A DNA stretch of 64,000 nucleotides from Fistulifera solaris (taxonomy: Eukaryota): NCBI GenBank assembly GCA_030295235.1, contig AP026180.1:1-64000 (forward strand). Direction: 5' to 3'. The notes beneath the pieces are model-generated. The model had not been told where the DNA came from. It saw nothing but the letters and a program-made list of their open reading frames with translations, and ran no database searches. Position 1 is the first letter of the stretch; the number at the start of each line of letters is the position of its first letter. The position numbers and the translations under genes are program-made. Shown in pieces: positions 2,690 to 64,000 of the stretch.

Positions 2690-3508
2690 CTAGTTCATAG
2701 TACAATCATCTACCAACAATCCCCACGCCTTGGAATCGAATTGCGTCAAATCGGTCAAAATTTCATCGGCAATTCCCACGAATGGACTCGTATCGGGCAT
2801 TCGTACATCGGGAACCGCCACCACCCAACAACCGGCGGCTTTTCCGGCTTTGGCACCCGCCACCGAATCTTCAAAGACCAAACAATGCTGTGGCTCCACC
2901 TGCAACAAGGCCGCTGCTCGTAAGTATATTTCGGGATGTGGTTTGGCGTTTTGAATCATATCGCCCGTAACGATGTGTTGCATGTGACGGAAGATTCTCG
3001 AGTGGTGTTTTCGTTTTTCTTGGACCGATTTCTGGCGCGACGAAGTCGCCAAACACATGGGAATGTGGTGTGCCGCCAGTTGTTCGACCAATGCGGTCGC
3101 ACCGTGGCATTCCTGAATTTGATCGGACATGGCATGGAGTATCGATTCCTGTTGCTCCCAGAATACTTGCCACGGAGGTAATGGTTGATTCAGTTCGAAA
3201 TGTTGTTGTGCATAATCGAGGATCATGGGAACCCAGGCGTCCCCGCGAAGACCGAGTGTTGGTTCTTTGATATCCCAGGGAAGACGATCTCCAAGTTGTT
3301 CGCGTAGTTTGGGGCCAAGTTGAAGTGCTTCGAAAATGGAGATGTCGCTCAGCGTTTCCGTATCCAGCAGAGTGCCTGGAAGAATGTTTGCAAAGAAGAC
3401 GATGATTGTGAAAACACGGTAAACTTAGGAACAAACAGAATTCAGCCTACCATCCATATCCCACAATACGGCTTTGATATGACGATGATCAAATGTTGAT
3501 AGAATCAT
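2690..3508 (-). CDS. HAD-superfamily hydrolase, pseudouridine-5'-phosphatase (HDHD1/PUDP)-like
   Basis: ATG at 3508. AVLWDMDG / intron ~3377-3450 / TLLDTE forms HAD motif I; also LATSS, KPHPEIY and CLVFEDS. Confidence 0.85.
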
Positions 3509-3665
3509 AATGGAATATAGAAGTATAGTTTTTCTCCGATCGCACCAACATTTCTGTTTTTGCGCATTTAGTTTTGCTTTTGTTTTTCGAAAAGTGAAGA
3601 TCAAAATAAAAATGTTTCGTCGAAAATCGATGTCAAGTACCGATAAGACGCAGAAACGTTACTTG

Positions 3666-4171
3666 CTACTATAGGATCAATGTGTGCCATCGTGCCATCA
3701 ACATTTCCACGACTGACTTTCAGTCATCAAATCATTGTAGTTTGAGACCGCCATCTATCGAATCACTGTTCGTCGTGCAAGCGCGGAAAGCTTCTTTGTC
3801 TTCTCACGCGGGAAAATTCATTCGGCATCATCTCCATTCAATTCTCGATGGTTGGTCTTGAAAATACTCGCAGTTTGATCTCTGGCCGATTTACTATAGG
3901 CCAAGGTGTTGGTTTACGGTAATCACGACTGCATTCCTCCATGCATCTGATTACGGAGTATTATTTTTCTGAGCCCGGCTGCTAGTGCTACCAATCCGTA
4001 AGCTATGTCATGTGTTTGTCTTTATCAAATAGAAATTGATTCACACTGTCTGCATTCTTTTCTTGAATTGTTGATGTTAGAAAGCCGTACGAACCCTGCT
4101 GCCTAACTGTTTCGGATTTAACTATAGACTAAAATGTAAACGACCTTTTGTCACGACTGCACTCAGTCACG
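3666..4171 (-). repeat. Three copies of a dispersed ~55 bp element (3666-3727, 3889-3943, 4118-4171)
   Basis: Each reads on the minus strand ..CAGTCGTG..ACA....C-TATAGT; tail anchors at 3668, 3893 and 4121. Confidence 0.65.
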
Positions 4172-4349
4172 AGAATGACTGTTATCGCGCGCATCTCTCG
4201 CATCGAAAAAGCACGCGTGCAATAAAGAATGCGACAAAATGCATGGCACACGAAATGGGGAAAGGGATTGACAATACTATTTAAAAAATTATCAAACCGA
4301 TCATTCTTTTTTGTTTCAGTGTCACTCATCCAGCGTTCTGACACCGATC

Positions 4350-6373
4350 ATGGTGATTCGATATCGCAAGTTACGGGCCATCTTATGGACGGCGTTGTGC
4401 TGGCAATGCGTTTCTTCGACTTTAACAAGTAATACTATCCTGCAGAATACGACGCACGTTTCACAAAATGCCGCACGACAAACACTGGCGGAAGTATCCT
4501 TTGCCGAACGCACGAGTGTAGACAATTTACTGGAGAATTATGCAAAGGCGAAAGACAGGTTAACGCAACTACTGCGTCATGATTATGGCAATGAATATTA
4601 TGCGATGATCTTTGAACCAGGATCATCCCGCGGTCGGACGGTCATTCAACCTCCGGGTGGTTTCGATGTCCTTTCGAATTCCTGGGATCGTTTGAAAGCC
4701 CGGATCATGATCAAACTGATTGATGTTCTTCGTTCCCCGACACCCCAACCCTTTGTGTGGGCGACCGGGGTCATTCGTCCGCGGCAGGACACGGGAATTT
4801 TTACGACGAAAGTTATACGGCTGTCTTAACAAGAAATGTGAAACAAATCTTTGAGGCGGTGGGGATGCAATTTATTGGACGGAACTACGCCATGGGTGGT
4901 TCCGATGCGGCACCCGAGGCGGCATGGTGCAATGAAGAAATCTTTGGAACGGATTTGGATGTTCTCGTTTGGGATTATGGGTAAGTTATGGTGACAATAG
5001 AAGTAGGAATGTGTCAATCAACGAATCTCATTTGCAAACAAATACTCTAGAATGACAGATGGTCGAGATGTCAGCAAAATGGCCATGTATTGCTACCGAG
5101 CGGCTTTGAATCCAAGCAAACCCGCCTGTATTGCACTTCATTGCGGTAAACCATCGCAACAACCACGTGCTTCGGCTTTGCGCACACTGGAGCAGTTGGG
5201 AGCCACGGTACTGATATCGAATGAAAATGTTTTGGAACAGTGTATGGACGCGATACCCGAGAGTCAAGGAATCAGTGATTACGAGTTACAAAAATGCCTT
5301 TATATGTTCGACATTTCAAATGTGGTGGATTGGTGGAAAGTGGAGATCCGTATTGCGGCGCGGAAAAGTACAATCACACCGATTGCACGCAACGCAAGTT
5401 TATGGCCAAATGGCATCAAGGATGGTACGTCGATGTCGTGTGCAAGAATTCGAAATGAAGTGATGGACGAATGCAAATATCTAACATTTCTGTAGGAGAT
5501 TCCATGCCTTACATGGCAACTTGATGGCTCTCTTTCTCACGGAACTAGTTGGCGATGCATTGCAGTCTTTGAAAGATAGCACTCAAAGTTTGGAAGACTT
5601 GCAAAAGGACCTGATTCGCGAAGAAAATGAACGCTACGATTTGTTGACTACGTCTCCGCTGCCCACCTATTTTGAAGATATGGTGAAAGATCGCGGTGAT
5701 CTACAGTTAGAACACATTTTCAAATCCCCCAATTTTTGTCACACGGCACGAGTTCCGGCAGAAATTCGACACAAAGGAATACTGACAGGGGGTCCACCGG
5801 GAGATTTGTTTCATTACGACGAGGGTGTTCCAGAGGGCCAAGCACGGAATGTCGAAAATGATTCCGAGTTTATGTGGCTAGTGCAGGACCCCACAACGCG
5901 ACAAAAATGTGACATTCCGCTCAATCTCGACAACAAGGACTACTTTTACGTCAAAGGTATGGATGGAAAGAAAAAGTTGATTCTCCCTAACGACGCCGAA
6001 GTTTCAGAATACGGTAGAGGTCAAACGCCTATAGGGCTTATAGCCATGTGTCTCTCGGTCTGTGATTGGGGCAAGTGTCCAAAAGGTGAGACAATCGGCT
6101 GACTGTTTCGAGAAATTACTATGCGAAGAAATTTGTTGACTGACCAATTCCATTCAGGTGACGTTCAAATAGAACAATATGAACAAAATGAAGGAACCAT
6201 TGAAATCAATGGTCAAAAGGTAACAGGATTTACTAAAATCGGAAGGTGTAGCTTCTTACGGCATGGCGATGGTCACTATTTCACTCCCAATTCCGATTTT
6301 CAAGTTTGAAATCAGTATCAACATTGCGTTACACTATTCGTTTACACGAATAGGAGCCTTCGTCATCTTTTAA
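4350..6373 (+). CDS. Secreted or type II membrane protein with an SGNH/GDSL-like N-terminal block; multi-exon, frameshifted
   Basis: Hydrophobic N-terminus; WATG-GHSSAAGHGN, RNYAMGG and VWDYG; GT-AG introns near 4981, 5425 and 6087; Cys-rich C-terminus. Confidence 0.55.
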
Positions 6374-7859: not shown

Positions 7860-8034
7860 ATTTTCTCAAGTGAGACGACCTATAAATCAATAATGAACCC
7901 AACAACTGTAGTGTGCGCCATGGTTGATTGTACACTCCGTGTATTCTTTTTCGTTCTGTGATTTTTGGTGATGGGTTGGCATCATTCGAGAGATGCTGGA
8001 CGGATGGACGGACTTGCAGACAAAGACACATCAA

Positions 8035-8198
8035 ACAGAATTTCCGTTTCATTCAATAACAATGCCCACAGATTTTCTGGTAGCTAAAAGGTACCTGGTA
8101 CTCATCATACAGAATTTCCGTGTGTCTCAAACCCAGGTACCGTATTATAGAATTTCCGTGTGCCTTATAATGCTTTGCACATACCACAGATTTTCTGT
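8035..8198. repeat. Five spaced copies of AYAGAWTTTCYG between two divergent genes
   Basis: Copies start at 8035, 8068, 8109, 8147 and 8186 (spacing 33, 41, 38, 39 nt). Confidence 0.7.
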
Positions 8199-8319
8199 TG
8201 ACTCAAAGACACATTGCGGATCGCAAAAGAAAAAAGAAAAAATCCATCATCACAATCATCACGACAATAATGAAGCACAAGTTTTTATAACCTCTTTAGA
8301 ATCCACCGCAAACTATGAC

Positions 8320-8361
8320 ATGGATCCGCAACTGTGTAATACAATAATGGAGGAAAATCAG

Positions 8362-8397
<36 letters not shown>

Positions 8398-9536
8398 CCC
8401 AATTCTCCCGCACGCAACGTTTCGGCGGCGGGGGTCGTTCGTGGGGTTTCCCGATCGATTGCTCGATCCATTGCCAAGCCCATTGCGAAAAAATTCCCAA
8501 ACAAGTTCCTAAAATCACCAAACAATTGTTTACCCGGCGAGGACAATTGCGTGTGAAAGGTGTCGCGAAAGTATCGGATCGTCTTTCGACGGGTTGGGAA
8601 GTCTATTCGTCCGTCAAAGCAACGGTGGACGAAGGAAGTGCTCCACAGAAAAAGACCCGTTCGTCGTGGATTCCGGTGTGGAACTCGGTGCGGACGTTTA
8701 CAGCCAGTTGAGTTTGCGTTTACCTATTGTGTGTTCTCGGTCGATAGTGGATTCTTTGGACCTCACATCATTCGCTCCTCATTTAGCTCTCTTACGAAAC
8801 TCCCTCGTCGGTACCGCCGTCTTTGAGACTTATGTGTATGCTATATCGAAAACCGTGACTAATGCTCCTCCGGAATGTGAACGAGACGAGATTGCTACTA
8901 TTCAACAGGATTCAATCAGCGATTCTTCTTCTGCGATCCCACAAAATCTTCACGATTCGATGGACGAGGACGTCGATGACGACGACGACGATGATGAAAC
9001 AGAAATAATCCCTCTGGATGCACCGGATGATTTTTCTCGGGCTTCTATCCGGGTACACGTAGGAGCCGGAGCTCTCGCCGGGGCGTTGGATGGATTGCTT
9101 TCCTCTGTCTGGGAATCCAAATCCCAATCCATGCAATTCTTTTTTCCAAAAAGCACCATCTCTGATTCTACAGCAATCTTTATCACATGCTCTACTGTTT
9201 GGATCGTACGAATGGTGCAAACGAAAACTGATTCATCAACTACATTCATCGCCATGGGGAGAATGGAAAGACTCGGGTTTGTCTCATTTGATGTGTATTG
9301 GTCTGGCCGGTGGTGTGGCGGGACAGTTACAAACTCTAACAAATCATTATGGTGAACAAATCCTAGAACGACAGCCCTCCACCGAACGCTTGTTGCGAAG
9401 CAAGCCATGGTCGGTCCAACTGCGGTTCTTGGTGAGAAAGGTCCATCATCCTTCGATGGGATCCATGATGGCAGCCTTTGTACCCAGCGCCGTGGGCTTT
9501 GTGGCGTTTGAATACGGAAAACGACTGGGATCTTGA
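8320..9536 (+). CDS. Hypothetical membrane protein with mitochondrial-carrier-like helices; frameshifted
   Basis: Poly-Asp tracts plus helices GAGALAG, SHALLFGSYEWCKR, LAGGVAG and FVAFEYGK that resemble SLC25 repeats. The canonical PxD motifs are not clear. Confidence 0.5.
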
Positions 9537-10525: not shown

Positions 10526-10643
10526 GGGAACGACCATACTACGATGACAGCACCGCTTCCCGTCTGCTCAGCGAAGTTAAGCATCGTCAGGCCCGGTTAG
10601 TACTACGGTGGGGGACCACGTTGGAATCCCGGGTGTTGTTCTT
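10526..10643 (+). rRNA. 5S rRNA, single dispersed copy
   Basis: GGAACGACCATAC...CCCGTCTGCTCAGCGAAGTTAAGC...GGTTAGTACT..GGTGGGGGACCAC..GGAATCC..GTGTTGTTC; helix I ends pair; about 118 nt; ends in a TTTT run (Pol III terminator-like). Confidence 0.96.
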
Positions 10644-11531
10644 TTGCCATGTTGGTAGTAGACGTATTAAAAATGTTTATAAGCTAACTTTTTCATCTTT
10701 CAACGGTCGCGTGCTTAGATTTGACTTGATCACTCACGTCTACTCCGTGACCATGTACCTGGTACTTGGTATTGTTGGCGGCCGGCAACGGCCTTGGACG
10801 CGGGCTCACATGAGTAGAGACATCATGTCTTCTCTTGTGATTAATCGGGCGGTTGGGAGATCCGTCGAAAACTCCTTTTGCTATGTGTGCGTGTCAACTC
10901 TAGGCTCCAAATCGAAGAAGCCGCTTCTCTATCAACCGAATAATCATCATCGCTATCAGACCCATTATTTTCTTCTTATTCACTTGCTCTAAATATCTTT
11001 GTCGCCATCCAAACACCTGACAAACTTATCCATCTTCTTCTACTTCCACCGACGTTTCCTGCGATACGAGCCTAATTTTGCCGGGGTTTCCTGACACAAT
11101 CGAGGCCGATCTTGGAGTTTTGTGAGATAATACGAGGCCCGTGGCTTGATGTAAAACTCAATCTTGCGCATTCTCGCAGACCGATTTTGCCAAGACACTG
11201 AACCTTATCCTGCTGCCACTCTGCGACCTTCCTTATGTAGATGGTTCTATATTTTAATATTCGGGCAAATATTTACGATTTCCGCATCGCTTATGGGGTA
11301 ACCGTGTCCGCGGCGGCCGCGATGAGGTCTCGGCCGGCCGTGCCACGGAAGCGCGCGCACCCTGAGGCGACGTTGGAATCCCGGCGAGTAGTAGTATTTT
11401 TGCTTTTCTTGGAGCGGCGGAACGCAAAAATAACGCAGTCTTGCTTTTTTTTGCATGCACTTCTTTTGAACTCGGACGAAAAAGAGATACATTCCCTCAA
11501 GGTTGCTCATTATTTAATTTATCGTTCTAGA

Positions 11532-13441: not shown

Positions 13442-15409
13442 TTAAGACATGAGGGATGTGGAAATACCACCCGACGCAAAATCCATCGGATTGTTGTGCA
13501 TCATGGCATCTTGATCCTCGAGGGGCAAGTAGTCCGCCAAGATGCCGCGGACTTGATTGCGCATGTCGTCTTGGGTTTTTTTGTAATGCCACACCGACAA
13601 GCCACCAAACACCGCAATGACCATGAACATGGAAGACACAAAGGTGTGCTTGGAAACTCCTTCGCCCGATCCCGCCGCTGATCCACTGGTAGTGCCCGCC
13701 CTGCAGTAACCGAGGCTGACACACTCCGAAGCATTGGCACAAGACCCGCATTTTTTGCAAATATCGGGGTGGAACCCGCCGAATAACCGGCACAAATCGC
13801 GCTAAACACATTCGAAGCGGTCAATGATCCACGAATGACCACATTGTTGACGAAGGTCGAAGGAATGACTACCACTCCGCGCTGTTCTTGATTTATAATT
13901 TCCCCCGAGAGCTTGGTGTTGATTTTGTCATCGGTCGTCCCACCCGAAGCACTCATGCAATTTTCAATCTTCTTGGCATCAATCCCGGCCTTTTTGTAGG
14001 CATCTTTGATGCAATCTTCGTTGGAGAAGTAATCCGGATCTTTCTCGCGACACAGGGTAGTGAATTTATCCACGTACTCCCAGAACGGAGCTCCGACTCC
14101 ATCCGAAACGCCGTAGGCTTCCCAAATACAAAGACGACGCAAACTTTCCTTGACAACATCCGCCCCGCTAATTCCTTTGTCTAAATCATTGTCAGGATCG
14201 GTCGCACAGTACCGTCCGTTGTTGGTGCACAAGGTGTAACAGAAATTCTCTCCCTCCGAACTCTGACAACCCATTTTGAGTCCATTGTGAATGTACATGT
14301 GCGGAGTAAAGTACGCATGCTCCCCCAACGCTTCTGCCAGCGGTTTGAAATTCTTGAAAAAGTCCTTGGTGACAATATCCGACGGCGTCGTCCACAAATC
14401 GTACTCGACGCGATCGTCCGGTGTGGGCAACGCCCACGCCATTTCCACTCTGCACGACGCGATTCGCCTTGAGTTCTTCCTTGACGGGATCCGCATCGTG
14501 CTTGAACATGAGAAAGGATGGAATGGAAATATCGGCACCGGAGCCATCGTCCGCCATGATGGGTTCGGAATTTTCGCACGTCGAAATGCCCGTTTTGGAT
14601 TTGCAATCCAAATCGGAACACAGACAGGTATTGTCGGCAATCAAGACACCGGCCGCGCCGGCCTTTTGGGCGTTGCGGACTTTTTGCACAAACGTACAGC
14701 CACCCCGATCGACCATGAGAATGTAGGGTGATTCCCACGGTAGTTGTTGACCGTCGTCTCCTTTCTTTTGGGGATATCCCTTGCGCGTGTCGACGTCGCT
14801 GTCGCACAGATCGGAATCGGCGTAATACACTTGTTGCGCAATGGATCCACCGTAGGGTGGCATGCCAAAGAGTGCTTCGCGATGATCGTAACCGCCTTCC
14901 TTGTTAAGTCTTTGGGGAATCTGATAGGATATGGGAATAGAGTATATATGATACAAGGTCATTGAAACGAAGAAACAAGGAAGTTTGTAGCGAAAAAGGC
15001 TTGTGAGAGAATATTCATTTGCTAGTGAGAAATAAAACAATAATAGAAACGTCAACATGGAATCAGTGCACCCCAGCAAAAACATAGTGTCAATCGCATC
15101 ACATCAGCAATCGCGGTCGTTCTTTCCCGGACCAACCTGTGCGGCTCCTTGCGCCCCCACCGCCGCAATGCATACAGTTTTTCCTTGGTGCAAAAATACA
15201 ACCAATAGAAGAATTTTCTTTTTCTCGAGTTCATAATAGAAACAAACGGATGCAGTATATTCGTTCGTTCCCGAATCATCGTCATTCACACCAACACACA
15301 TTCGTACCTGTACGGTTAACTTGCTCGACACATGATCCGGTGCACTGCTTTGTCCTTGTGCACTGCAGACATAGGATGCGAAGAGAAGAAATGTTGTGAT
15401 TAGACGCAT
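13442..15409 (-). CDS. Vacuolar sorting receptor (VSR/BP-80-like), copy 2
   Basis: Signal peptide; intron 14921-15307; VDRGGCTFVQKVRNAQKAGA, CTNNGRYCATDPD, a TM helix and a YLPL tail; frameshifted. Confidence 0.92.
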
Positions 15410-15845
15410 TATTTATTAATTAAACAACAACAGAAGAAAAAGAAATAGGTTTGAAGCTTTCGTTGTGTGTCGTGTCGAGAGGGAAGAAAATGCCTCGCGA
15501 CGAGCGGGAGGAGCACTTTTTCTAACGAGGGCTCAAAAGAACGACGAACGAGGTGGAATTTTTTCACAAGACAGAACCGTTTGAATGACAGTGTGTACTG
15601 TTTCACTATGATCTTAGAAGTGACCCTCGGTAGTATACACACCAAGTGTATTCTGGGATCTTCTCCGGTCTCTCTACGACTCAAATGACGTTTCGACGTT
15701 TCGAAGGTCCTCATTGCCGTCGTTGCGTTCCGCCAACAACAACGATTGTTGGTTGTTGGCTACTGCCTTTACGGCAGGGAAATGATCTCATCTTGAGGTG
15801 ACAATCTGGCTCGGACAAACAATACGGAGCATTGATTCGTGACTT

Positions 15846-16113
15846 ATGACTGAAATGCAGTCGTGGTCTCCGTAAACCAACACTTTGGTACATAGTAAAT
15901 ACGGAATACAACGTTTCGCAAGGCTCTTCGACATACAAATATCAAGGCGTGCAATGCAAACGCTGCTAAAGCTTTTACTGCAACAGCAACAAATAGATCT
16001 TAAACAATTGGTCGAACGAACGAATTGTAGTTAGCATTGTCGCTCGAAAGAATATTGAGTCATGACTGAAAGCAGTCGTGGCGAATACGGACAACACTTT
16101 GGTCCATAGTAAT
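15846..16113 (+). repeat. Two copies of the same dispersed element (15846-15900, 16061-16113)
   Basis: ATGACTGAAA(T)GCAGTCGTGG...CAACACTTTGGT.CATAGTAA in both copies; offset about 214. Confidence 0.85.
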
Positions 16114-16429
16114 ACAATAATCGTTTAATTAAGGCAGACGGAAATTCTGCTTTCTGGTACCTTGTACACTTCACACACACACAAGCCGTTTTCGACATCT
16201 GTGTGCGACACTGTGAACTGTGACGTTTCTATGGTCCGTCCCCCCTTCGCGTCATGCTGCATCCTGCATCGTCTCCTTCGCAACAACGACAACAACAAAA
16301 CACCATGGTGATTAACTTATTGATTTGTTAATCAATCAATTCATCCTCTTCCTAAACTGTTTTTCGCAAAGTCGATTCTCCTTCATCTCAATTTAATTGC
16401 TTAATTAGTAGTATTGGTTGAATTGCAGA

Positions 16430-17655: not shown

Positions 17656-18488
17656 CTATAGTGTGATCAATGTGGGAAAATCCGCCATCAGATCGCGACT
17701 GGTTAGCGTTTCGTCGCGGGCACTGGGTGTCCACAATACTTCGGCCGCACTCACGACTTCTCCTTCGGCGACTACGGCATTGCTGGCCAGACTGGTCAGC
17801 ACTTGTCGAGTCGCTTCCATGCTAAATCCGGCACCATCGAATCTATAACATTAGAGTGAGAGAATGGCCATGCTCGAGATAGGCTGTCCGAATAAATCAT
17901 CCACTTACCGAGTGCTGTCACCTTCTATTTCTACAATGAGACTGACGACCACCATCGTTGATGTGCCTTTGTCTTCAGTATCGATTCCTGGAATATATTC
18001 CTTGAAGACACCTCGTTGTGAGCTCGTAATTTAAAAGTATATACTCCAACCGAATTATCCTTTATTGCTGTTACCTTTTCAAATTTCAAAGCTTCTGCTT
18101 CCGCCCATTGATTGAATTGAGCTTCCGCTTTGGCAGACTCGCGGAATGGGAACCATTGACTATCACTGCTGGCCGCGATCCAATCGTCACTTCTTCGCAA
18201 CAACGCAAGACAAACTTCTTTCACCAGAATTGCCAAATGCGCCGAGGATCCACCGGTCGATCGTGCTTTCCGTTCCAAATCACCAAAGATCGAATCTTTG
18301 CCTCGTTCTTTCGAAAAGAGAGCTACTTGTACTTTCCCCACGGTGATGCCTTTGCCCAAAACGCCCTCTTCTTCGAAAAGTTTGTTAAACAGAGAAAGTG
18401 AAATATCGTGGACACGTTTTTGCGAAACTGGTGTAAAGCCCGCGACAACAGAAAAGCCCCATAAGAAGACAGCGAACCGGCTTTTCAT
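17656..18488 (-). CDS. DUF1517/FLAP1-like plastid protein, copy 1
   Basis: Signal peptide plus AG-F; KVQVAL, LALLRRSDDW, AEAQFN..E..KF, EVLWTP and DFPTL; introns 18001-18074 and ~17845-17908. Confidence 0.8.
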
Positions 18489-18956: not shown

Positions 18957-19737
18957 TCATAGCGAAATCAGCTCTGGGAAATCGGCAATCAAGTCACGGC
19001 TTGTCACCGTCTCCGTTCGCTCACTGGGCGTCCAAAAGAGTTCTACGGCATTCACAACTTCCCCTTCGGCGACCATGACATCGCTGGCGATACTCGTCAA
19101 GACTTCCTTGGTTCCAGCGAGACTAAAACCAGCGCCATCGAATCTGGCAAGAGATGATTTTTAGCTCAGCACAATCGAATGATAATTTTCAACCAAGCAG
19201 TCATAGTACTTACTTTGTTTCATCTCCTTCAATTTCGATAATGAGACTGACAACCACCATGGTCGAAGTTCCTTTTTCCTCATCATCTTCGCTGGGAATG
19301 TATTCCTTCTCGAATTTTAACGCCTCAGCATTTGCCCAATCGTTGAATTGACTTTCTGCTTTTCCAGCATCATCATACTTGAACCATTTACTTTCACTAT
19401 GCGCAGCAGTCCAGTCGTCACTTCTTCTCAACAAAGCCAGGCACACATCTCGTGCTAAATAGGCCAATTCTTCCTGGTCTTCGTTGGATTCTCTGGACAG
19501 CTCTTCCAGTTGACCGAAAATGGATCCCTTTCCTCGATCCGAGGCAATCAGGGCTACCTGAACTTTCCCAACGGTGATTCCTTTCCCCAGTGGTCCTTCT
19601 TCTTCGAACAATTTGTCGAACAGTCCGAGCGTGGTGGTCAATGAACGGTGGCCGACACCCCACAAATTTGGTGCGAACGACGATACTGGAGCGCTCCACA
19701 AAATCAAGAAGGCTGCTTTCCAGACGTAATTGATCAT
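18957..19737 (-). CDS. DUF1517/FLAP1-like plastid protein, copy 2
   Basis: Signal peptide plus SS-FAP; same motifs as copy 1; one intron ~19144-19213. Confidence 0.8.
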
Positions 19738-20322
19738 TGCTATTTCGGTCAGTTCTGTGCGAAGCGGCGGTGTCGATCTGTTTGACGATAAATATCTCTT
19801 GTACAATTGTCGACGATGAATGCGAAGTTCCAACAATCAAAGTGGAGGACGAGCTTATTATTTGCGTTGTGGATGGAGTTCAAGAAAAAATCATCGGCAT
19901 GATGATGACGTGTCACATCAGGATCATGAGAGACGATGAGACAGAGGAAATGTCTTCGTTGCGAAAATTTGGCGCGGTGACCCTGAGTGCCGCATCTGTA
20001 GTGATGTATTTTTCAATTTAAGAACCAGCCTAAAACCTCACGATTTTTGTTATCGGTCTTACCCTTCGTCTCTGATAATAAAAAGAACGCCTGTAACTGT
20101 GACATATATTTACTTAGAAAAATCGTTGTTTCAGTAGCCCTAAGTCACGCCAGGCCATCTTTCCTTTTCTCGACTGCATCTTTTCGATCACAAGTGTCCG
20201 ACGACAATCACCGAAACAAGAAAAAAAAGCCTCTGCGTGATTCTTTTCTTCCACTTCACTCATTCGGAAGAACTTTACCATTCGACAGTAATTGGGCCTC
20301 CGACCGGCTTCGTTGCAATAGA

Positions 20323-26828: not shown

Positions 26829-27638
26829 TTAGGACAAAATACCCGATGCACTGATAGAAAAGGAATCTGCGACGCCTGGACTGTCGCTAGGTATTCATGA
26901 CCGCCCGTCACCGCATTTCGCTGCAGCCGCACGCGCTGTGTAATGAAACGATCCCATTCCAAGTTCCGCGGACTGGAGGATGCCGTCACCAGTACCACCG
27001 AACATTGTTCGAGCAGGCGAGACAATTGTCGGACGATTTCCGTGCGCACTACATCCTCGTCGTCCTCTAAAAAACCGTCCCACAAGATCAATGTGGGATG
27101 CGAATCGAACGCGGCCAACTGATGACGCCAACACTCGAGCAGAGGCACCCAGTCGGTCGCCGCCCGCGCCAAATGAATGCGTTCACAACAATCTTGCAGA
27201 TCTTGATTGAAAAGTTGTTCGTCATGGGCATCGGCCATGGCCGTTTGGATGTGACGCAGTAGCGTGGATCGGACGACGTGGGCTAGTTTGGAAGCCGTCA
27301 CTTGTTGGTGAGAATCCAGCCACAAGACTTGCGGAAGAATATCCGTAGTCGTGGTGGTGAATTGGGAGGGCCGCGTTTGCACGACAAAGCGTGCCGCCAG
27401 TGATAGTAGGGTCCACGTTTTCGCGACATCTCCCGTCAAATGAATCACCGGAAGTGTCGGAGTGTGTCGACGAAAGGCCGCGTCCATGAAGGATATTCCG
27501 GATCCGGAACGAAAGAACGACCACGCGGAAGACGAAGGATCTTTGGGGATTTCCTCTCTCTTTCGTTTCGATCGTTGAAACCAATCGTACGCTGTTTCGG
27601 TCCACGAAGTGGGGTGGGGCGACCTGAGTCGTCGTCAT
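26829..27638 (-). CDS. RAD51-paralogue, XRCC2-like; frameshifted
   Basis: DETA-type N-terminus, degenerate Walker A (IHLTGDVAKT), VLWLDS, a Walker-B-like LILWDG, and a C-terminal ISASGILS after frame correction. Confidence 0.6.
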
Positions 27639-27983
27639 TGTGAATCAAGTTAGAACAGTGCGCCGTAAAATAATACAATTAATGAAAAGCGCCGAGAGAA
27701 TATATGAATGAAACAAACTAAAGAATGACGGAAATAAAGCATCATGCCAACGTTGCATTTTTGGCGGGAGACGAAAACGATGTGTATACTAGTATGGCGA
27801 ATACTGTAGTCGGCTGCGTACATCAATAAAATTCCTACGAGGCCAACGAGAAACACTCGTAGACTTTCGATGCCTTGCATCATTCCTCATTAGTTAGCTT
27901 TAAGTCAAGTTAATGTCGATTATTGTTTATTAAAAAGTAAAAGATGGCTTGACTACGTTGATGATAAGCTGACAGTCACTTTT

Positions 27984-28321
27984 AATTTCGCGCAATTTTG
28001 ATTTTTCCAGCCAATGTCTTCGAGTCCTGACCTTCATGTTTTTACTATGATCTAAACAGTTTGTTGTACCAATCCACGACTGGATTTCGTCATGTGACTC
28101 CATCAAGCCTTTTGTACATGCAGCCTGCAGCGCGAATTTTTCGTCTTTTTCGCGTTTGACGATAGTCTCTTACAATAGTTAATCCAAAGCTAGTTATGCT
28201 TTCACCTTGAAATTCCGCGCCATTGCGATTTCAGCCGGCAATGTCTTCGCGTCCTGATCTTCATGTTTTTACTATGATCCAAACAGTTAGTTCTACCAAT
28301 CCACGACTGGATTTCGTCATG
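27984..28321. repeat. Imperfect direct repeat, about 110 bp x2 (27984-28094, 28211-28321)
   Basis: Shared CAATGTCTTCG.GTCCTGA.CTTCATGTTTTTACTATGATC.AAACAGTT.GTT.TACCAATCCACGACTGGATTTCGTCATG; offset 227. Confidence 0.92.
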
Positions 28322-29332
28322 AGAATAAAATAAAATTGAGAGTTTAGCGTACTTATTTCCTATCCCTATGACAGAACCGTAACACAATCCGTCCCTAGAC
28401 AATGTCTAGATGCGGATTGCCAAGACATTACTGAGGCAATGAGCATGGGGGCTGCCATCTGATTCGGAGTGAAATTTGTGGCCTAGTCCGTCGGCCGAAT
28501 AATTAGTTTGGGTTCGCGTTAAGCGCCGATTCTGGTGAAAATATGATTGCTTGTGTGGTATTTGATTGCTCTGGGTTCAAATTGATTCGTCCTTGCTGTT
28601 GTTGTGCTGTGATTGTCGATGCTGGTAAGTTGGGTTCTGGGGGTGTGAAGTTTCCACATCATAAGAATCATGAATTTTTATGATTGATGACTTTTTAGTC
28701 GTTACTAGCTAGTTACTAGGAGACTCTTTACCAGGGACCCTTTGAAGCAACGGCGCCACTCTAGCGCTGAATAATAATTCCACAATGGTTATCACTTTTC
28801 CGCCGTCACATAGTCTAGAGGCGTCAGCAACCGTATTGTGGTTTTGACGACTGACTCGTGATTGATTCGTTCGTTCGTATAGAAGAGCCTCAACCGGCCT
28901 TTCTTGTAGTATCCTCGAAACTGTAGAGAGGGTGGTCGCGTGTTCGCCGCACGCGTATTTTCCGTTGAACCGTTGCGTGTGCGTCTGACGTCGAGCGTCG
29001 AAGGTCGAAGATCGAAACAAGCACGAACGCAATGAGAGGCAAAAGATGCGGTCAACGACGATGCAGATCTGAAATCGACAACAAGAGTGAGCACAACGCC
29101 ATTGAAATCTTTATTCATCAGAATTTTACAACGTTGCTTGCAATCTACGCTTGTGTAGATTTAAGAAGCGGATATTTGTAGAGCAAAATTTGCGATTTGC
29201 AATCAACCTTGATTACTGAAACGATAAAAGCATCGGCACTCCTCGTGAAAGATTTAGGTTGCGTCCCTATCATCGTCAATATAAATTTGCTTTGTTTTAA
29301 ACTGAAGCTTTCTTATTGTGTGAACGACAATT

Positions 29333-31278: not shown

Positions 31279-32148
31279 ATCATTGGGTTGTTGCAGAGCT
31301 ATACATCCGAACGTTGGGCATTTGTTAGTTACAGTTAAGGTCAAACTGTTATTATTTTTAAAAGATTGATCTCGTAGTCTCAACTTGAATCATCTTTCAT
31401 GTTGCCTATCGACAAGCTTCGTACGATGGATCTATCGTGACCCAGGACCAAGATCCAGTCGTGGAGAGATTTTTCAACACTTGTGTTTATAGTGAATTCA
31501 GAGTTGCATCGTTTTGAGGGCTCTTCGACGTCAAACGAGCTAAGGAATGCATTGAAATGTTGCTTACAATACAGAGCGACCTTTCTCAAATGCAATTATA
31601 TTATAAATAGTGTTCCGTTGTATCTGTAATGCTCGAGCGAAAGACTAATCTGAAAGTTCATGTCTTGGATTGCTACCATCGTGACGCTGCATTTTTATCA
31701 ATTTGGGCCAGAGTTTCAACATTTTGCAATGCCATGATATAAGGTACAAGTATTTGAATTTATTGTTGCTGATGCTTTTGGTGGAATGCAATAAAAACTA
31801 CTCCGTAGGAATTACAAGTACGTCAATGTTAATGCCGCGTTTCAGAAAATCACACGGATTTTGTTATAGTGTATAAAGTATTGACTGAACTGTGATTCAG
31901 TCCCGGAATCCGGCTACTCTTTTTTCTTGCCGCGTGGCATTTGGTGCCACTCATGACTGAAATGCAGTCGTGAAAAAAGTAATTCGATTTTGACTGTAGG
32001 CTTGGCTGTGGGCACCGCTCGAGGGGTGCGACGCTCGATGAAGTTCGTTCCATTGCAATAACATCTCGTTGCGGTCCCTTCATTTCATTGATACTATCCT
32101 TTCATTCCTTCATTCTTATCCCTTTTCCATCCACCTACACAATACGAT

Positions 32149-34229
32149 ATGCGCGCTGCAATACACATCATCGTTATTGTCGCCTGGCAGGCCATTCTCG
32201 TCACGTCATGGATACCCACAAGAATGCAGCATCGACCGACGACGATCCTTTTCACGTCCAAGGAGGATCGCATGGGATTGAATGAATTGCATACCCTGTT
32301 GCGAGACGCCGTTTTACGAGAAGATTATATAGAAGCGGGGCGATTGTCGGATACGATGCTCGAACGATTGCACGGTTCTACGCTCGACCAAGAAGAACGC
32401 AAAGCACTTCGACGACGCATGTCGTGGCGAGGACTCGGTGCCGCGCCGTGGCTCAGTGAACGATTGGATGCCTTGAATTATACCTTCCCGACGACGATAC
32501 AAATCAATGCTATGGAAGGAGTGAATGCCATACTCAATAGTACGGCCGAAGAATTAGACGAATCGTCGTTGGAAGCGCGGATCGATCGGAATGGGGCGGA
32601 TCACGATATGGGAATTGTGGTCACGGGAACCACGGGGTCGGGGAAGACACTCTCGTATTTGGTTCCGCTGCTGAGTACATTGAGTGATTCGTTATTTGCA
32701 CGACAACGAATTCGAGTGGGAGCGGAAGAAATGGTGGGAGACACGACGGGTGACTTACTCGATCGATTGGCGGTCGTCACTTCACCCGTCGTGCGGTCCA
32801 ACAGTCGCAAACAAACACGACAAAAAGGAGCCATTGCTGCGGGAGCATCGATTTCGACGTTAGGAAAAAGCGGAAAGGATGTCAGGAGTCCACTGGCGCT
32901 CATTGTTGTCCCGACCCGGGAATTGGGGGTGCAGACCGCCATGCTGCTTTATCAACTCATCGGGGGAGTTATTAAGGATGATCCCACGCAAAGTTCCGGA
33001 CGGGCCAACATGTTCAAGTATAAAGGTCCCAAGGGAATTCGAATTGGTTGTGTATTGGATGACGAAGAATCGTCCTTTGGCTTGAAGTTGCAGACCGATG
33101 TCGCTATTACTACCCCAAAATACTTGGGAAAACTGTTAGAGGATGGCGATATTCTTCCATCCAAGTTGAGAGTCGTTGTGTACGACGAAGCGGACTTGGC
33201 TCTCGAAGAAACGGATGCCGGCGACTTGAGTAAACTGTTTGACGATGATCCCGAAGAGCGCGAATACAGTCGTTTGGTATTTTTGGTCGGTGCCAGCGTC
33301 ACGGAATCGTTAGGGAACTTAGCCGTCAGTTCTCGTGTACTGCCAAAGGGGAAGAGCTGGATTGCGTCTGCCACAGATTATCGACCTCTCGAGTCGCAAG
33401 AAAGCGAAACCTTATCGCGATTGGTGGGGAAACAAACCGCATCCTTGAAAGACCTCAATCTGTGTCTTTATCCCGGATTGAAGCACGAACGTGTGATACT
33501 CAAAAACGGCCGTGGCTTGCTGGTTCTCGCACGTCTTTTGCGCAAAGCACTCTATGACTACGAACAATCGGTGGCATCACCCTCACCCGGGATGGCACTG
33601 CAACGGCCTCGAGTGGTCGTCTTCTTTCCCGACGAAGCTCAAGCGCGAGCGGCCATTGAACCACTCCGCGATGCCATGTGGGGAGATCATCGCCTCTGTG
33701 TACTTCTTCCTAAATCCGGTGTCAACCCATTGACCATAATGGAGCAGTTCAAAAGAACGAGACATCGGTGATGCTGGCGACGCCCAACTCGGTTCGTGGC
33801 TTGGACTTTCCCGCATTGACGCACGTGTATACGTTGTATTTGCCCATGGAAGACCCCCGTGAATACGTCCATTTGGCGGGCCGCGTGGGCCGTGTGGGAC
33901 AACTTGGAACCGTTCAGGGAGACGGTGGTCACGTTATTTCCATACTGAAAGAAGAAGACGCCAATCAAATGGATGTATTAGCCAAGGAACTCGGGTTTGA
34001 TTTTACGGATGTGGATGCAAGTTCCGTGGAAGATATTGTTATTTTGAATGCAGAAGGAAAAGTAGACGAAACAATGTTTGACTTGGAAAAGACGAGACGA
34101 TTTTTAGAAGATACGCTGAACCTAGTGGAAGAAGCAGAAGATCCGGTTGTTGATGTCGATGCGATTGATGCCGCCCGATCACAATATGTTTACGACGACG
34201 AAGATGATGACGAAGAAGAGGACGAATGA
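32149..34229 (+). CDS. DEAD-box-like helicase with an N-terminal UVR-type motif, predicted plastid-targeted
   Basis: PTTIQ Q-motif, TGSGKT, PTREL, DEAD, RGLDF and YVHLAGRVGR; signal peptide ending S-W; frameshift near 33755. Confidence 0.85.
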
Positions 34230-41094: not shown

Positions 41095-42072
41095 TTAAAG
41101 CGTCACAACCGTTCCGCCGGTGCCACTTCCCATACCATCCGCACCGCCACCAAGAACTTCTTTCAATAAGGCATGAGGAACTCGTCCATCCGTAATGAAT
41201 GCGCCTTGTACACCCAACTCAACAGCACTCGTGGCAAAGGATACCTTCGGAATCATACCTCCGGTGATGGTCTCATCCGCAATCAGATCTTTAATTTCGG
41301 CAATACTCAATTTGGGGAACAGCTCCTTGTCCTTGTTGAGCACTCCCGCAATATCCGTCAAAAGAGAACACGCGCCGCTTTGATTTCACCCGCAATACGA
41401 CCCGCCGCAACGTCGGCGTTGACATTAATAGGCGGTCTCGTCCCCCGGAAGGCCCGTGCCGATCGGACTAACGACGGGGCAGATACCACAGTCTAACAGT
41501 TGACTCAAAGTCGCCGTATTCACCACTTCGACTCGTCCCACATTCCCTAAATCATATCCATCTTTATTGATTTCTTTGACACACTGCAATATACGGTCGT
41601 CACGTCCGGACACGCCAATCGCTCGGCCTCCGGCGGCACAAATTTTGGACGAAATTTCTTTGTTGACCGCCCCACACAAGACCATCTCGGCCACATCGAC
41701 CACTTCCGGGGAACTGACGCGCATCCCGCCTTCAAAGCGCGACTCGACGCCGACCTTTTCCAACATTTGGTTGATTTGCGGACCGCCACCGTGTACCACA
41801 ATGACGCGGATGCCCAAATTTTGTAAAGCCGCGACATCTTGACAGAACATGGTTTTGAGTTCGGCCGATGTCATGGCGTTGCCGCCGTATTTCACCACAA
41901 TGGTTTGTCCTCGTAAGGAAGCCGCGGCTCCGGCAATGGTCAAGGCGGCATCGGCGAATGAGTCTTCTTCGGCCAAGAGAAATGTTGTGCGAAAAGCAGG
42001 ACGAGGCGTCACAAAGGCGAGCGTTCCTTGTGCGAGAGCAGTGAATACTGCAACGACTCGAAGAATCTTCAT
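41095..42072 (-). CDS. argB: Acetylglutamate kinase, plastid-targeted; apparent indels near 41427 and 41365
   Basis: VVKYGGNAM, VHGGGPQI, NVNADVAAG and GGMIPKV; signal peptide plus LA-F. Confidence 0.95.
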
Positions 42073-42417: not shown

Positions 42418-42788
42418 ATGGCAAAGAAGAATAAAAAGGAGAAAAAAGAGCCCCCAGAGCGAGAAAAAGAAATCATTGATTACCATGGAAGATTTAGAAG
42501 AAATGTCCGGTGATGAATTGCCCCCGGAAGACGAATGGGATGACGAGGCGAAAGCTTTGAAAGAAGCCATTTTGGGAGGTGCTTATGATCATCTTTTAAA
42601 ACGAGAAGACGGTGGTGATGACGAATCCATCGAAGAAATTGAAGTTGGATCCTCCGATGATGATACCGATGGCGAAATCGACAACAAGGGAGACAAAGAA
42701 GTTGTCGAAGATGATTCTCAAAGCCATTCTTCGGAAGAAGCATCCGAATCGGAAAACGAAGAAGTCGGAGAAGAAGAGCACGATGAAC

Positions 42789-42819
<31 letters not shown>

Positions 42820-43709
42820 TGAAGCATCTTCCGATGAAGAGGACAGCGGTAGCGACAGCGACGACGACGAAGAATCCGATGTTGACCAATCCTCGAAGCA
42901 ACAGAGTGGGTCAAAAGCCCTTCATATTATCACCAATCAGCTCATAGCCGAAAAATCAGGCTGGCCCTGGGCGGAGACGTTTGCTGTTGTTGCAACAACG
43001 CCACTCCCGTTCCATGTGGAAGGCGAAGAGCACGTGGATATTCATGACGACCTCAAGCGTGAGGTCGCCTTTTATGACATGGCATTGGCCTCCGTATTTC
43101 AAGCGCGAGAGCAATGTAAGAAAGCAGGCATTCCGATCAGTCGTCCCGCCGACTTTTTCGCCGAAATGGTCAAGTCCGACGGTGAGTGAATAATGAATGT
43201 GTAACGTTCCGGTGATCTCTCTTGTTTCTCACACACTTTCACCAACAGAACACATGGCTCGCGTCAAGGACCGTCTCATTTTTGAAACCAAAAAGATTGA
43301 TGCTGTCAATCAAAGAAAATCAAACAAGGAACACAAATTGCGCAGCAAGGAAGCGCAGGCCAACAAATTGGCCGAAAAAGCCAAGAGGAAGAAGGACCAT
43401 TTCAAGGCCGTCGAAGAATGGGCCAACTCGGCCGAACGAGGTCAAGACAATCGTCTCATGGATGCCTTGAATGGAAAGAACAAGGGACCCAACAAGAAAC
43501 GTCAACTGGCCGACAAGAAGTACGGCTTTGGCGGCAAGCGAGGACGATTCAAACAGAATGACCCCAAGTCCATGAACGACATGTCCGGATACAACCCGAG
43601 GGGTAACTTTTCCGGGGGAATGAAGAAAACGAGCAAAAGTTCGAACGCCGGCGCTGGACGAAAGGGAAAGCGCGCACGAGATGCTAGTAGATCACGCCAG
43701 AGAAACTGA
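42418..43709 (+). CDS. EBP2: rRNA-processing protein EBP2
   Basis: Acidic N-terminus; DDLKREVAFY, RPADFFAEMVKSD/EHM (intron ~43183-43248) and KYGFGG; frameshift near 42450. Confidence 0.93.
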
Positions 43710-50300: not shown

Positions 50301-51436
50301 GGCAAGGGAGCGGGAGTCAAGGCCACGCGATAAATCAAACACAAGAATTTGCGAAACAAATCCCAATAAGGATGATAGCTCAAAAGCACCAAGCATTTGG
50401 GAAGAAAGAGTTCTTGCAGTGGTTGTTTCAATTTGGTGGGTAGATGGTGTTTGCGAGGTGGATGCAACGACGCACTCTCCCAAATATCGTACAAGTGCTG
50501 CGCGTCGTGCACATCGTCGTATACTTGCAGAACCGCTCCATACAAACGTTCTCCGGTACCGGTCGTGACACAAAACGTGAAAAAGGAAGGGGGTGACCGA
50601 CACACCCGGGCATGACATCCCTGGGGAAAGACGAGTAAGCCCAAATGCGACGGAAAGTCGTCCTCAGGTTCCGGAAAGCAGTCGGCCACTTGGGGAGCTA
50701 AAAATATTTGTTCCGGATGTGGCGGTTGTGTCTGATGATTTTGTTTCAGATTCATTGTCATTAGAACAGTATCCAGCGTCTCGGAAGGAGTCAATACACA
50801 AAAATAACGAATCAATCGATTCTTTTGCAAATCAGTGTTCTGTGAGTGCGTCGTGGTGGATTGATGCGTAGAGCGTGAAAACGAGGATTCCAAATGACAC
50901 AACTGCGGATACTGTTGGTCCCAGTGATGTCTTTGTAGTATATTCTTCCAAGCCTGTTTCGCCATGTCATGATGTTGCGTGGGAGGCAAACAAAAAGCCA
51001 AGGCTTCGTACTTGGCTCGCACAAAGAGCCATCGTTCCGCTTTGGAGCAGTCACTGGACGGCCGTGGAAGGATACTCGGGTTGTAGTACGCTTCCAGTGT
51101 TTGCGCGGCACGTTGATTGTGAATGTAGGGCAGCATGGCCGGCGGAGGTCGCGGGACGTGCTGGTACAGCAGCAAATCGTGTGCGTCGGCACACAAAGAA
51201 CAAATTAAGACTCCTGTGAATGCAACACGATCGGCCGCCTCATCGGCTGGATCTGGCACTGTACTGCCTTCTTCTACCAGAATACTGTTGTCATCGTCCG
51301 TGTCATGTCGGGGAAAGGATACAAACACTTGTGATGCATCGACCAAAATGCTATGACAATCAGCACAGACTCGATTCGACGGAATAGAAAGCAACTGATT
51401 CAATGTCGCTGATGTGCTGCTAGTATCAGGAATCAT
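47359..51436 (-). CDS. DENN-domain protein with an N-terminal ArfGAP-like zinc finger and C-terminal IQ-like motifs; frameshifted, one 3' intron
   Basis: NRVCADC..GVLICSLC..FVRAKYE; uDENN/DENN/dDENN motifs (VFPQG, PKCLVLLS, LLYPFQWQGVYLPVMP, APVPFLLG, FFVSVFRDY, TQLF); IQACMRG. Confidence 0.85.
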
Positions 51437-51616
51437 TTCGATTGCACATGGTGACAAACGGCCAAAGAGCAACGCTTTTTGTGGAGCACAAGTTTTTTAT
51501 CATCATGGTCAACTTTTTGCGTGTGAGTGCGTGCATTCAAAAAAGCATTCAGTCTGTGACTAAATTCACTCGGGAACCATGTAAAAGAGTGCTTTCCCAA
51601 GTGGCACATAAATCCG

Positions 51617-52004
51617 ATTTCCACTATGAAACGGAGTGTTGGTTTACGCCAGCCAAGACTGGATTGTACAGTACCCGGTAGTCATGAACCGAACAACAAA
51701 GGGTTCCGTTTTGCGTCTCTCGCGTCCGTCTATTTTGATTCAAGTGCGAATATACGGAGTAGTTATATTTACGGGTAAATAAATGCGCAACAACGATGAT
51801 TTTGAACTACTTGTTAAGAGTTTCTTTTATTTTCACGTCGAAATAATCCGAGGATCGACACATTGAATTTCCACTATGAAACGGAGTGTTGGTTTACGCC
51901 AGCCAAGACTGGATTGTACAGTACCCGGTAGTCATGAACCGAACAACAAAGGGTTCCGTTTTGCGTCTCTCGCATCCGTCCATTTTGATTCAAGTGCGAA
52001 TATA
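51617..52004. repeat. Near-perfect direct repeat, 138 bp x2 (51617-51754, 51867-52004)
   Basis: Two substitutions seen (51724/51974 and 51731/51981); offset 250. Confidence 0.95.
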
Positions 52005-54636: not shown

Positions 54637-55213
54637 GGAAGTAAAGAATTTTATTGAAGCACACTTTTATGTTTAACTGCCTATGAGTAGCCTATGTAGA
54701 CTATTTGAAATGAGGAAGAGTGCAAAGAAAAAATTGAGGAAGAGTAATGTTCTTTCAGAGGACATTACACATTACAAGAAAGGCACATTACAAGAAAGTA
54801 GTCGCGCTTGCTGTTGAACTTACAACCCAATTAGTTCGTATTCACTTATATTTGATGTTTATTGCTTGTTTATGATGCACCGCCGCCCATCGCCATCCGT
54901 CGTCGTGCTTTGTATCCTTAGAAAGGACCTGATTCATGACTAAGATGCAGTCATGAAAAAGTTATCTACACTTTGGCTATACAGTAGCTATAAAAAGGGT
55001 ACCTGTACGATGGAGACACGATTCATACATACACGTTCCAAGTGGAAGTTGAAATCTAAGAAAAATCCGACAAGTGAAATTCCCTTCACGTTGAAGTTCC
55101 TTCAACGACGTATTTTGCGTTTGATTTTCTCTCTCGCCCTTGTCAAAAGCAAGATCGGCGTTTGTCGCTTTTCTAGTTCATCTTCATTCTTCTCCTCTCC
55201 TTGTGCAACAACA

Positions 55214-63177: not shown

Positions 63178-64000
63178 ACTAATATTTAAGGGAATAGCGT
63201 GTTTACATTCAGATAGGATTTCCGATCAATAGAGCTGCAGAGAGCCGCAACATTTGCGAAATCAAGTCGCAATAACCGCGAGGTGCAAAAATCCGTGCAG
63301 CTGACAACAAAAGGCAATAAGCATGGGCAAAGATTTCTCGTTTTACTTAATCAAGACTGGGTACCGCTTGAGTACCGGTGGGTAAGGCTTGGTTGCTTTC
63401 TCCGCTCGCGCGCCTCGAGTGAGTCGTCAAATAATGATGAAATATTGAGCCATCTTGTTTCAAGTAACCCGGTAGTCTGAAACTTAGATCTTTCATTTAA
63501 TAAATCAATGTATTAACTATTTGGGACTGCAATGCAGTCGAGCCCCCTGGTCGGCCATGCTATACGAAATCCGGGTACAGGTAAAGCCGATTTTCACCAC
63601 TTCCAATTTCCGTAAAGTCAGTTACCTTGGTTTTACATCGTAAATACCAACAGCAGTATACAAATCATATCCCTCTTAACGGTCTAAAAGTGTTCCCTGG
63701 CTAATTTCTTTGATAGACGCAGAAGAACTGTCCACTTCGAACTTTGCTGGTGCTAAGCGTTTGCAGTTTGATAAAAGGCCGTAATGGCGTGCATGCTGGT
63801 ACTACCTAGCGTCATCAGCTCGGCATTAGTGTTCGAACAAAGACCAACCGACTCAACGTGGCCGGGCCAGTTAGGCTGTTCGCTTGGCTGGCGCTTCCAA
63901 AAGGAAACGGACACGAACGCGATCATTGAATCCTAGACTCATTTGCACTGCATCACATTTCAAGCTTATAGCGGAGCCAGTAAGCCGTGTCTGCTAACTG

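Follow-up and report, generated by a model that had tools for sequence, protein, structure and literature searches.

The intergenic region between positions 3508 and 4350 of the window, i.e., of the whole 64-kb stretch analysed here (gene-dense eukaryotic DNA with short GT..AG introns, 47% GC), separates two divergently transcribed genes and carries three copies of a short multi-box module, all in one orientation. The gene on its left encodes a HAD hydrolase (- strand; 5' part within 3375-3560); its short first exon, MILSTFDHRHIKAVLWDMDG, begins with the ATG at 3508 and is followed by a gt...ag intron of 72 nt, which splits the DxDGT motif, and then by TLLDTE. An out-of-frame upstream ATG is present at 3551, between the first module copy and the start codon of this gene. 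Throughout the window, gene starts were called from open reading frames (ORFs), Pfam hits, and one hand-checked splice, and the evidence considered here comprises the 64-kb window itself, the public contigs matching it, and the literature. The window also contains a lone 5S rRNA gene (10526-10644, + strand; full length, Rfam score 99.7 bits), which lies between protein-coding genes, does not belong to an array, and has no module copy nearby.

Profile searching with nhmmer detected 12 copies of the module at 6 intergenic loci of the 64-kb window. The profile was built from 9 copies, so that 9 of the 12 matches are its own seeds; all 12 matches have E <= 6e-6, and the next match has E = 0.04. 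The module is orientation-specific, non-coding, and composed of several boxes within approximately 105-130 nt. Read on the strand that carries ACTAT, it consists of box 1 (TTTACTATRG), box 2 (CYAANNNGTGTTGG), box 3 (CACGACTG), and box 4 (CATTTCAGTCATGA), the last two together forming an imperfect palindrome. On the gene-facing strand, the palindrome reads TCAYGACTG and, after 4-5 nt, CAGTCGTG; the second box is CCAACACTTTGG, and the TATA-like box CYATAGTAAA stands at a fixed distance. A fifth box, TTCGACRT on the gene-facing strand, is present in some copies only and lies about where transcription would start; it is found exactly 31 nt past ATAGT in three copies from three loci and at approximately 31 nt in a fourth copy. 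The identified copies and the two spacers of cluster 1 are as follows.

3632..3738 (profile match 3671-3738), + strand: cluster 1, copy 1; 31-32 bits (nhmmer), the weakest of the three copies of this cluster, its boxes 1 and 3 being 9 nt further apart than usual, and with an approximate fifth box at 3632-3641
3731..3887, no strand: cluster 1, spacer 1, homologous to spacer 2
3888..3956, + strand: cluster 1, copy 2; 50-51 bits (nhmmer), boxes 1-3 near consensus, box 4 decayed
3958..4115, no strand: cluster 1, spacer 2, homologous to spacer 1
4112..4185, + strand: cluster 1, copy 3; 37-39 bits (nhmmer)
15835..15905, - strand: cluster 2, copy far from the epimerase gene; 53-54 bits (nhmmer), the best in the window, with the fifth box (TTCGACAT on the + strand) 31 nt past ATAGT
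16052..16118, - strand: cluster 2, copy adjoining the epimerase gene (ATG 16430); 43-45 bits (nhmmer)
27979..28107 (profile match 28035-28107), + strand: cluster 3, copy 1 with its upstream common tract; found by nhmmer, repeat family D4
28206..28324 (profile match 28262-28323), + strand: cluster 3, copy 2 with its upstream common tract; found by nhmmer and by repeat search
31433..31502, - strand: cluster 4, full copy with fifth box; 43 bits (nhmmer)
31947..31983, - strand: cluster 4, partial copy with boxes 3-4 only; 21 bits (nhmmer), separated from the full copy by 509 bp, with the ATG of the DEAD-helicase gene following at 32149, 159-180 bp away
51617..51754 (profile match 51614-51689), + strand: cluster 5, copy 1; 138-nt tract of repeat family D2, palindrome with a 12-nt insert
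51867..52004 (profile match 51867-51939), + strand: cluster 5, copy 2; fifth box in its own upstream flank
54927..54991, - strand: cluster 6, single copy; 33-34 bits (nhmmer); its 8-bp palindrome arm is perfect, and a canonical TATAAAAA stands just past it; the probable ATG (55214) of an FAD oxidoreductase gene follows at approximately 230 bp

Conservation of the module is confined to its boxes. Among the 11 copies with a box 1, all but one have box 3 starting 30-31 nt after the A of ACTAT; in the exception, the distance is 40 nt. When 10 copies were stacked on box 3, high information was observed only at CACGACTG+CATTT, at ACTAT, and in a part of box 2, and the information between the boxes was near zero. 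Such box-limited conservation is the pattern that would be left by selected binding sites in anciently diverged copies. Box 3 is also specific for the module: all nine occurrences of CACGACTG in the window fall within copies (shuffle mean, 1.9). A 19-base bipartite pattern has six matches in the window, corresponding to 6 of the 12 copies, and matched in none of 100 shuffles. The box-2 variant GTGTTGGTTTACG is common to copies of clusters 1, 2, and 5, and the copies at 15896 (cluster 2) and 31495 (cluster 4) align over 125 nt with 66% identity. Both copies of cluster 3 (27979-28097 and 28206-28324) carry, at the position of the fifth box, the sequence GAAGACAT on the gene-facing strand, which contains GAAGAC. 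Two isolated palindromes of the box-3/4 type are found without the other boxes at 63525-63539 and 2527-2540; one of them is perfect (GACTGCA-A-TGCAGTC) and the other is GACTGAAACCAGTC. Because such isolated palindromes exist, the palindrome may be a binding site in its own right.

The sequence-only reading had placed nine anchors in four of the six loci and proposed that the copies are phased at about 225 bp. All nine anchors were confirmed, with the A of ACTAT located on the + strand at 3668, 3893, 4121, 28044, 28271, 51623, and 51873, and the complement of ACTAT at 15892-15896 and 16106-16110 in cluster 2; the spacings of 225, 228, 214, 227, and 250 bp given there are correct. Re-measured from box 3 (CACGACTG), these spacings are 216, 228, 215, 227, and 250 bp, and the sixth adjacent pair, from cluster 4, is 509 bp apart by the same measure. 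The single orientation claimed for each cluster also holds, all six adjacent pairs being on the same strand (P = 0.016). The smallest range that holds five of the six spacings is 36 bp (P ~ 2.5e-4 under random placement); in this null model, the same copy numbers were placed uniformly in the same intergenic regions, and 0.0245% of 200,000 trials were as tight. The spread of 214-250 bp, together with the one gap of 509 bp, is no tighter than our estimate of neutral drift (approximately +/-5-10 bp, a rough figure rather than a computed one, based on how dense indels are in the only spacer pair that aligns). A profile search for decayed extra copies revealed none in the 509-bp gap of cluster 4 and none at one unit's distance from any array.

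The spacers of cluster 1 were said to share little similarity, which needs correction, as they are not unrelated. Spacers 3731-3887 and 3958-4115 align over approximately 70 nt with approximately 65% identity and a register shift of 8 nt; their local score of 18.5 compares with 9.3 +/- 1.4 in shuffles (z 6.5) and is reached in 0 of 1000 shuffles. Among real segments of the window, 1 of 1590 attains this score against spacer 1 and 0 of 1590 against spacer 2. In the sequence-only reading, clear spacer homology was named as the observation that would favor simple tandem duplication over selected phasing. By that criterion, the cluster 1 spacers, which are homologous and nearly in register, favor duplication. 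These alignments support the reading of the array at 3.7-4.2 kb as an old tandem duplication. The cores of copies 2 and 3 of this cluster, with 64% identity, are no more alike overall than their spacers; the boxes alone rise above this level, as would be expected of an old duplicate whose binding sites are under selection.

The proposal of old tandem arrays with a unit of about 225 bp is thus supported for cluster 1, by spacer homology; in clusters 2, 3, and 5, the spacer matches neither flank. Homology over the whole unit is weak in cluster 1 and absent in clusters 2, 3, and 5, and a repeat search finds only pairs covering a part of the unit. In cluster 3, the two copies share a tract from -65 to +53 (27979-28097 vs. 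28206-28324, 86% identity), and in cluster 5 they share a tract from -6 to +131 (51617-51754 vs. 51867-52004, 99% identity); outside these tracts, the unit has no match in either flank. Simple recent tandem duplication does not explain the three two-copy arrays for this reason, and a simple duplication of a 227- or 250-bp segment is disfavored because the spacer would have been copied too. The different tract edges in clusters 3 and 5 agree better with gene conversion than with a mobile element having fixed ends, and partial gene conversion between old, already diverged neighbors appears to fit the two-copy arrays best.

The repeat search also returned several features apart from the module. 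A second repeated intergenic motif (CAGAATTTCCGT / CCACAGATTTTCTG) is present in four copies located 33-77 bp apart at 8026-8208 (families D10 and D14), and one more copy is found at 41479-41510. Two neighboring ORFs, 17903-18488 and 19208-19836 (- strand), are paralogous, with 73-77% identity over stretches of 70-101 nt (D5, D8), and represent a tandem gene duplicate of the ordinary kind. At 8341-8415 and 42749-42886, long (GAC)n / GAA-GAC runs encode, in frame, acidic Asp/Glu tracts in two unrelated ORFs (D1).

Likeness between clusters is in places higher than likeness within them. Copy 2 of cluster 1 and the cluster 2 copy at 15896 have 85% identity over 47 nt, compared with 64% between copy 2 and its own neighbor; this may point to dispersal or ectopic conversion more than to an array growing only in place. 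Other genomic contigs match 33-46 nt of the cluster 1 copies at a 90% likeness threshold and have different flanks. Taken together with the box-2 variant found at three loci, these matches suggest that some spread or ectopic conversion was more recent than the local arrays.

Public sequence data provided several views of cluster 1. The 19-base pattern, which finds 6 of the 12 copies in the window, had no matches in public genome contigs and none in viral contigs. One locus in a public metagenome contig does match this pattern; having 57% GC, no box 4, and an nhmmer E of 0.04, it was taken as a chance match. In two RNA-like runs, characterized by GT..AG joints, contigs cover the flanking genes only and none falls on 2951-4354, an observation that has no bearing on expression. 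As a check for copy-number variation, two DNA-like runs were searched for joints skipping one unit, and none was found. In one contig from a DNA-like run, positions 3569 and 4445 are linked by 687 other letters in place of the 875 nt that comprise the whole intergenic region of cluster 1; both flanking genes are matched at approximately 90-95%, and this version is probably the cluster 1 locus of the other subgenome. A wetland metagenome run covers the whole of cluster 1, differing over 1140 nt by 8 substitutions and 12 gap letters. Boxes 1-3 of all copies are free of the changes listed for it, and copy 2 has lost its decayed box-4 end through a 7-nt deletion, these events being too few to gauge constraint.

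The four clusters of the sequence-only reading were described as lying between divergently transcribed genes, and the gene starts called from ORFs and Pfam hits agree. The two additional loci, clusters 4 and 6, each lie between genes of the same direction, and a divergent gene pair is therefore not required. The flanking start codons and the distances from ATAGT to ATG on both sides are listed below.

Cluster 1: flanking ATGs at 3508 (- strand) and 4350 (+ strand); 160 bp on the facing side, 167 bp on the other
Cluster 2: flanking ATGs at 15085 (- strand) and 16430 (+ strand); 320 bp on the facing side, 750 bp on the other
Cluster 3: flanking ATGs at 27487 (- strand) and 29333 (+ strand); 161 bp on the facing side if a 77-codon ORF is real, otherwise 557 bp, and approximately 1000 bp on the other
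Cluster 4: approximately 159 bp on the facing side; the other side is the 3' end of a gene
Cluster 5: flanking ATGs at 51436 (- strand) and 52969 (+ strand); 187 bp on the facing side, approximately 965 bp on the other
Cluster 6: approximately 231 bp on the facing side; the other side is the 3' end of a gene

Five of the six loci have the module oriented with its TATA-like end toward the nearest gene start, at a distance of approximately 159-320 bp (161 or 557 bp in cluster 3). The polarity of cluster 1 is uninformative because the distances on its two sides are 160 and 167 bp. The agreement of all five informative loci (P ~ 0.03) is no more than suggestive of polarity and depends on the ORF-based starts. 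The bidirectional-promoter setting proposed earlier is too narrow for the family, given the positions of clusters 4 and 6 and the polar character of the module. The flanking genes encode a HAD hydrolase, a vacuolar sorting receptor, an epimerase, a PDZ protein, a DEAD helicase, a DENN protein, and an FAD oxidoreductase; these neighbors are functionally unrelated, which points to a general module not tied to a regulon. The complete modules with the fifth box are mostly the gene-distal copies, a misfit for a model in which the proximal copy drives the gene. The upstream ATG at 3551 makes copy 1 of cluster 1 an improbable core promoter of the HAD gene, and with the gene-distal position of the complete modules it suggests that the proximal copy is probably not simply the core promoter of its gene.

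Our leading explanation, held at somewhat less than even confidence, is that the phasing at about 225 bp was inherited as the unit length of a promoter-like module that was duplicated and kept by selection. This module would represent a putative protein-binding control element of promoter type that, together with its spacer, was duplicated head to tail long ago as a unit of about 225 bp. The spacers would have decayed almost to noise while selection kept the boxes, and neighboring copies may at times have been re-homogenized over a part of their length by gene conversion. The spacing itself would then be neutral, inherited rather than selected. Since at least one array appears to be an old duplication, a period of about 225 bp need not mean chromatin phasing or rolling-circle transposition. 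Duplication of the whole unit is seen in one of the five arrays, so that the common value of about 225 bp requires either arrays spreading as arrays or an unnamed process that sets their length. The similar spacing of the two-copy arrays is therefore explained only indirectly, and the likeness of unit lengths at unlinked loci only partly.

An origin of the copies as remains of a small non-autonomous mobile element (Helitron-like, recombinase-driven, or other) appears unlikely. Such an element would insert or multiply in head-to-tail order; the unit would then be the length of the element, and the core its terminus or a recombination site with a hairpin. Such an origin would account for a dispersed family with variant subfamilies between loci, such as that with GTGTTGGTTTACG in clusters 1, 2, and 5, for the closer likeness of clusters 1 and 2 than of neighbors, for the contig matches with different flanks, for the same orientation within arrays, and for the retention of the palindrome arms despite a 12-nt insert in the loop. 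The rolling-circle variant, put forward by the sequence-only reading, found no support. The candidate Helitron end, itself a guess, is (C/T/A)(A/C/T)TAG in 10 of 11 copies and ACAG in the remaining one, with T as the next letter in every case; no CTRR or TC start is found beside it, so that TC...CTRR ends are lacking, and the palindrome is not GC-rich and lies 26-30 nt from this end instead of 10-20 nt. The two young pairs have different tract edges, and inspection by eye of the 138-nt pair with 99% identity showed neither terminal inverted repeats nor a target-site duplication, as would mark a MITE, at its sharp edges. The nucleotides between the palindrome arms differ both in sequence and in number (17 nt in cluster 5, 4-5 nt otherwise) and would thus serve poorly as a recombinase crossover site. 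Further points against a mobile element are that the spacers between copies are unrelated between loci, that conservation is limited to the boxes instead of decaying evenly, and that all copies are located in 5' intergenic regions. Selection on the spacing itself, with factor-bound nucleosome-free cores and one nucleosome in each gap of approximately 160 bp forming a phased platform beside gene starts, seems very unlikely to us. The recurrence of 214-250 bp at five unlinked arrays, in four of which the spacer sequence is unrelated, speaks for it, and the unit minus a core of approximately 60 nt leaves 155-190 bp, near the length of one nucleosome plus linkers. The same range, taken with the gap of 509 bp, is no tighter than the neutral drift estimated above; no 10-bp WW periodicity above shuffles was observed in the spacers (five spacers, low power), and the residual spacer homology in cluster 1 indicates descent.

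Finally, each unit of about 225 bp could be a small transcription unit, in which a type-3 or snRNA-like promoter directs a variable non-coding RNA of approximately 130-150 nt into the spacer and the unit length is the gene length. This we consider unlikely; that the units form a new class of small-RNA genes with a previously unknown type of diatom promoter and a functionally fixed unit length is distinctly unlikely. Small-RNA gene families show head-to-tail arrays of similar unit length at unlinked loci, an arrangement that is also found here. The bipartite box at fixed spacing from a TATA-like box, the conserved box where a start would be expected, and the gene-distal position of the complete modules with the fifth box, odd for an mRNA promoter, favor the same interpretation. 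It is opposed by the RNA searches: at gathering score, Rfam finds only 5S in the whole window, and lenient scans of the five array-bearing intergenic regions gave chance-level matches, with no family scored even weakly; ARAGORN detected no tRNA genes. The stability of predicted folds is inconsistent (z from approximately -2.7 to +1.9 for cores and spacers on both strands), the C/D-box pattern does not recur (2 stray matches in 24 segments), and RNAalifold finds the palindrome only, with no pairs on one strand and seven pairs without a compensatory change on the other. Only some copies have T-runs that would stop Pol III, located 30-40 nt past the expected start, whereas other copies lack them, and the spacers, into which the RNA would extend, are not conserved between loci.

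To our knowledge, almost nothing has been established about promoter architecture in diatoms. If the explanation by an inherited, duplicated, and selected module is right, a compact module of approximately 110 nt with five boxes at fixed distances, placed before unrelated genes, would be a handle on a general diatom transcription factor or on the machinery of start-site selection, and it could be a useful part for engineering an oil-producing species.

We found no description of this module in literature searches on its motif and on diatom promoters and conserved non-coding elements. For Fistulifera solaris, one preprint describes three consensus motifs of 41-50 nt in predicted centromere/ARS regions (bioRxiv 10.1101/2021.11.10.468027). 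The module and these motifs have short words such as CGACTG and GACAT in common, a likeness limited to words of 5-6 nt. The identification of the module with these motifs was rejected: neither motif 2 in full nor the cores of motifs 1 and 3 match anywhere in the window when up to 3 mismatches are allowed. A small-RNA periodicity of 180 nt in Phaeodactylum concerns methylated transposons and genes (PMC4247016) and, as it does not concern intergenic arrays, is not applicable. Helitron tandem arrays resemble the module in having same-orientation head-to-tail units with a subterminal hairpin, whereas the module differs from them in the lack of TC...CTRR, the excessive distance of the hairpin, the variable tract edges, the box-limited conservation, and the absence of any partner element seen in the window.

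Further parallels are provided by two promoter systems. Animal and plant U-snRNA genes have a PSE or USE element and a TATA box at a fixed distance and are often arranged in head-to-tail arrays of a few hundred bp. The module shares with these snRNA-type external promoters its compactness, its orientation specificity, and an upstream box at a fixed distance from a TATA-like box. Unlike them, it has additional boxes (box 2 and the fifth box), no known RNA behind any copy, and no consistent terminator, and its copies stand before ordinary protein-coding genes. In the diatom Thalassiosira, the U6 promoter has its TATA box 23 nt before the start, according to PMC5121945. Promoter or enhancer modules present in tandem before a gene, for example the spacer promoters and enhancer repeats of rDNA intergenic spacers, differ from the module in that the latter precedes many unrelated single-copy protein genes in only 1-3 units of similar length at unlinked loci. 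The spacer promoter and enhancer units of rDNA are homogenized by conversion or unequal exchange. The likeness between the two systems is that whole promoter-like units lie repeated in one orientation upstream of a gene, with boxes that persist while the spacers between them diverge.
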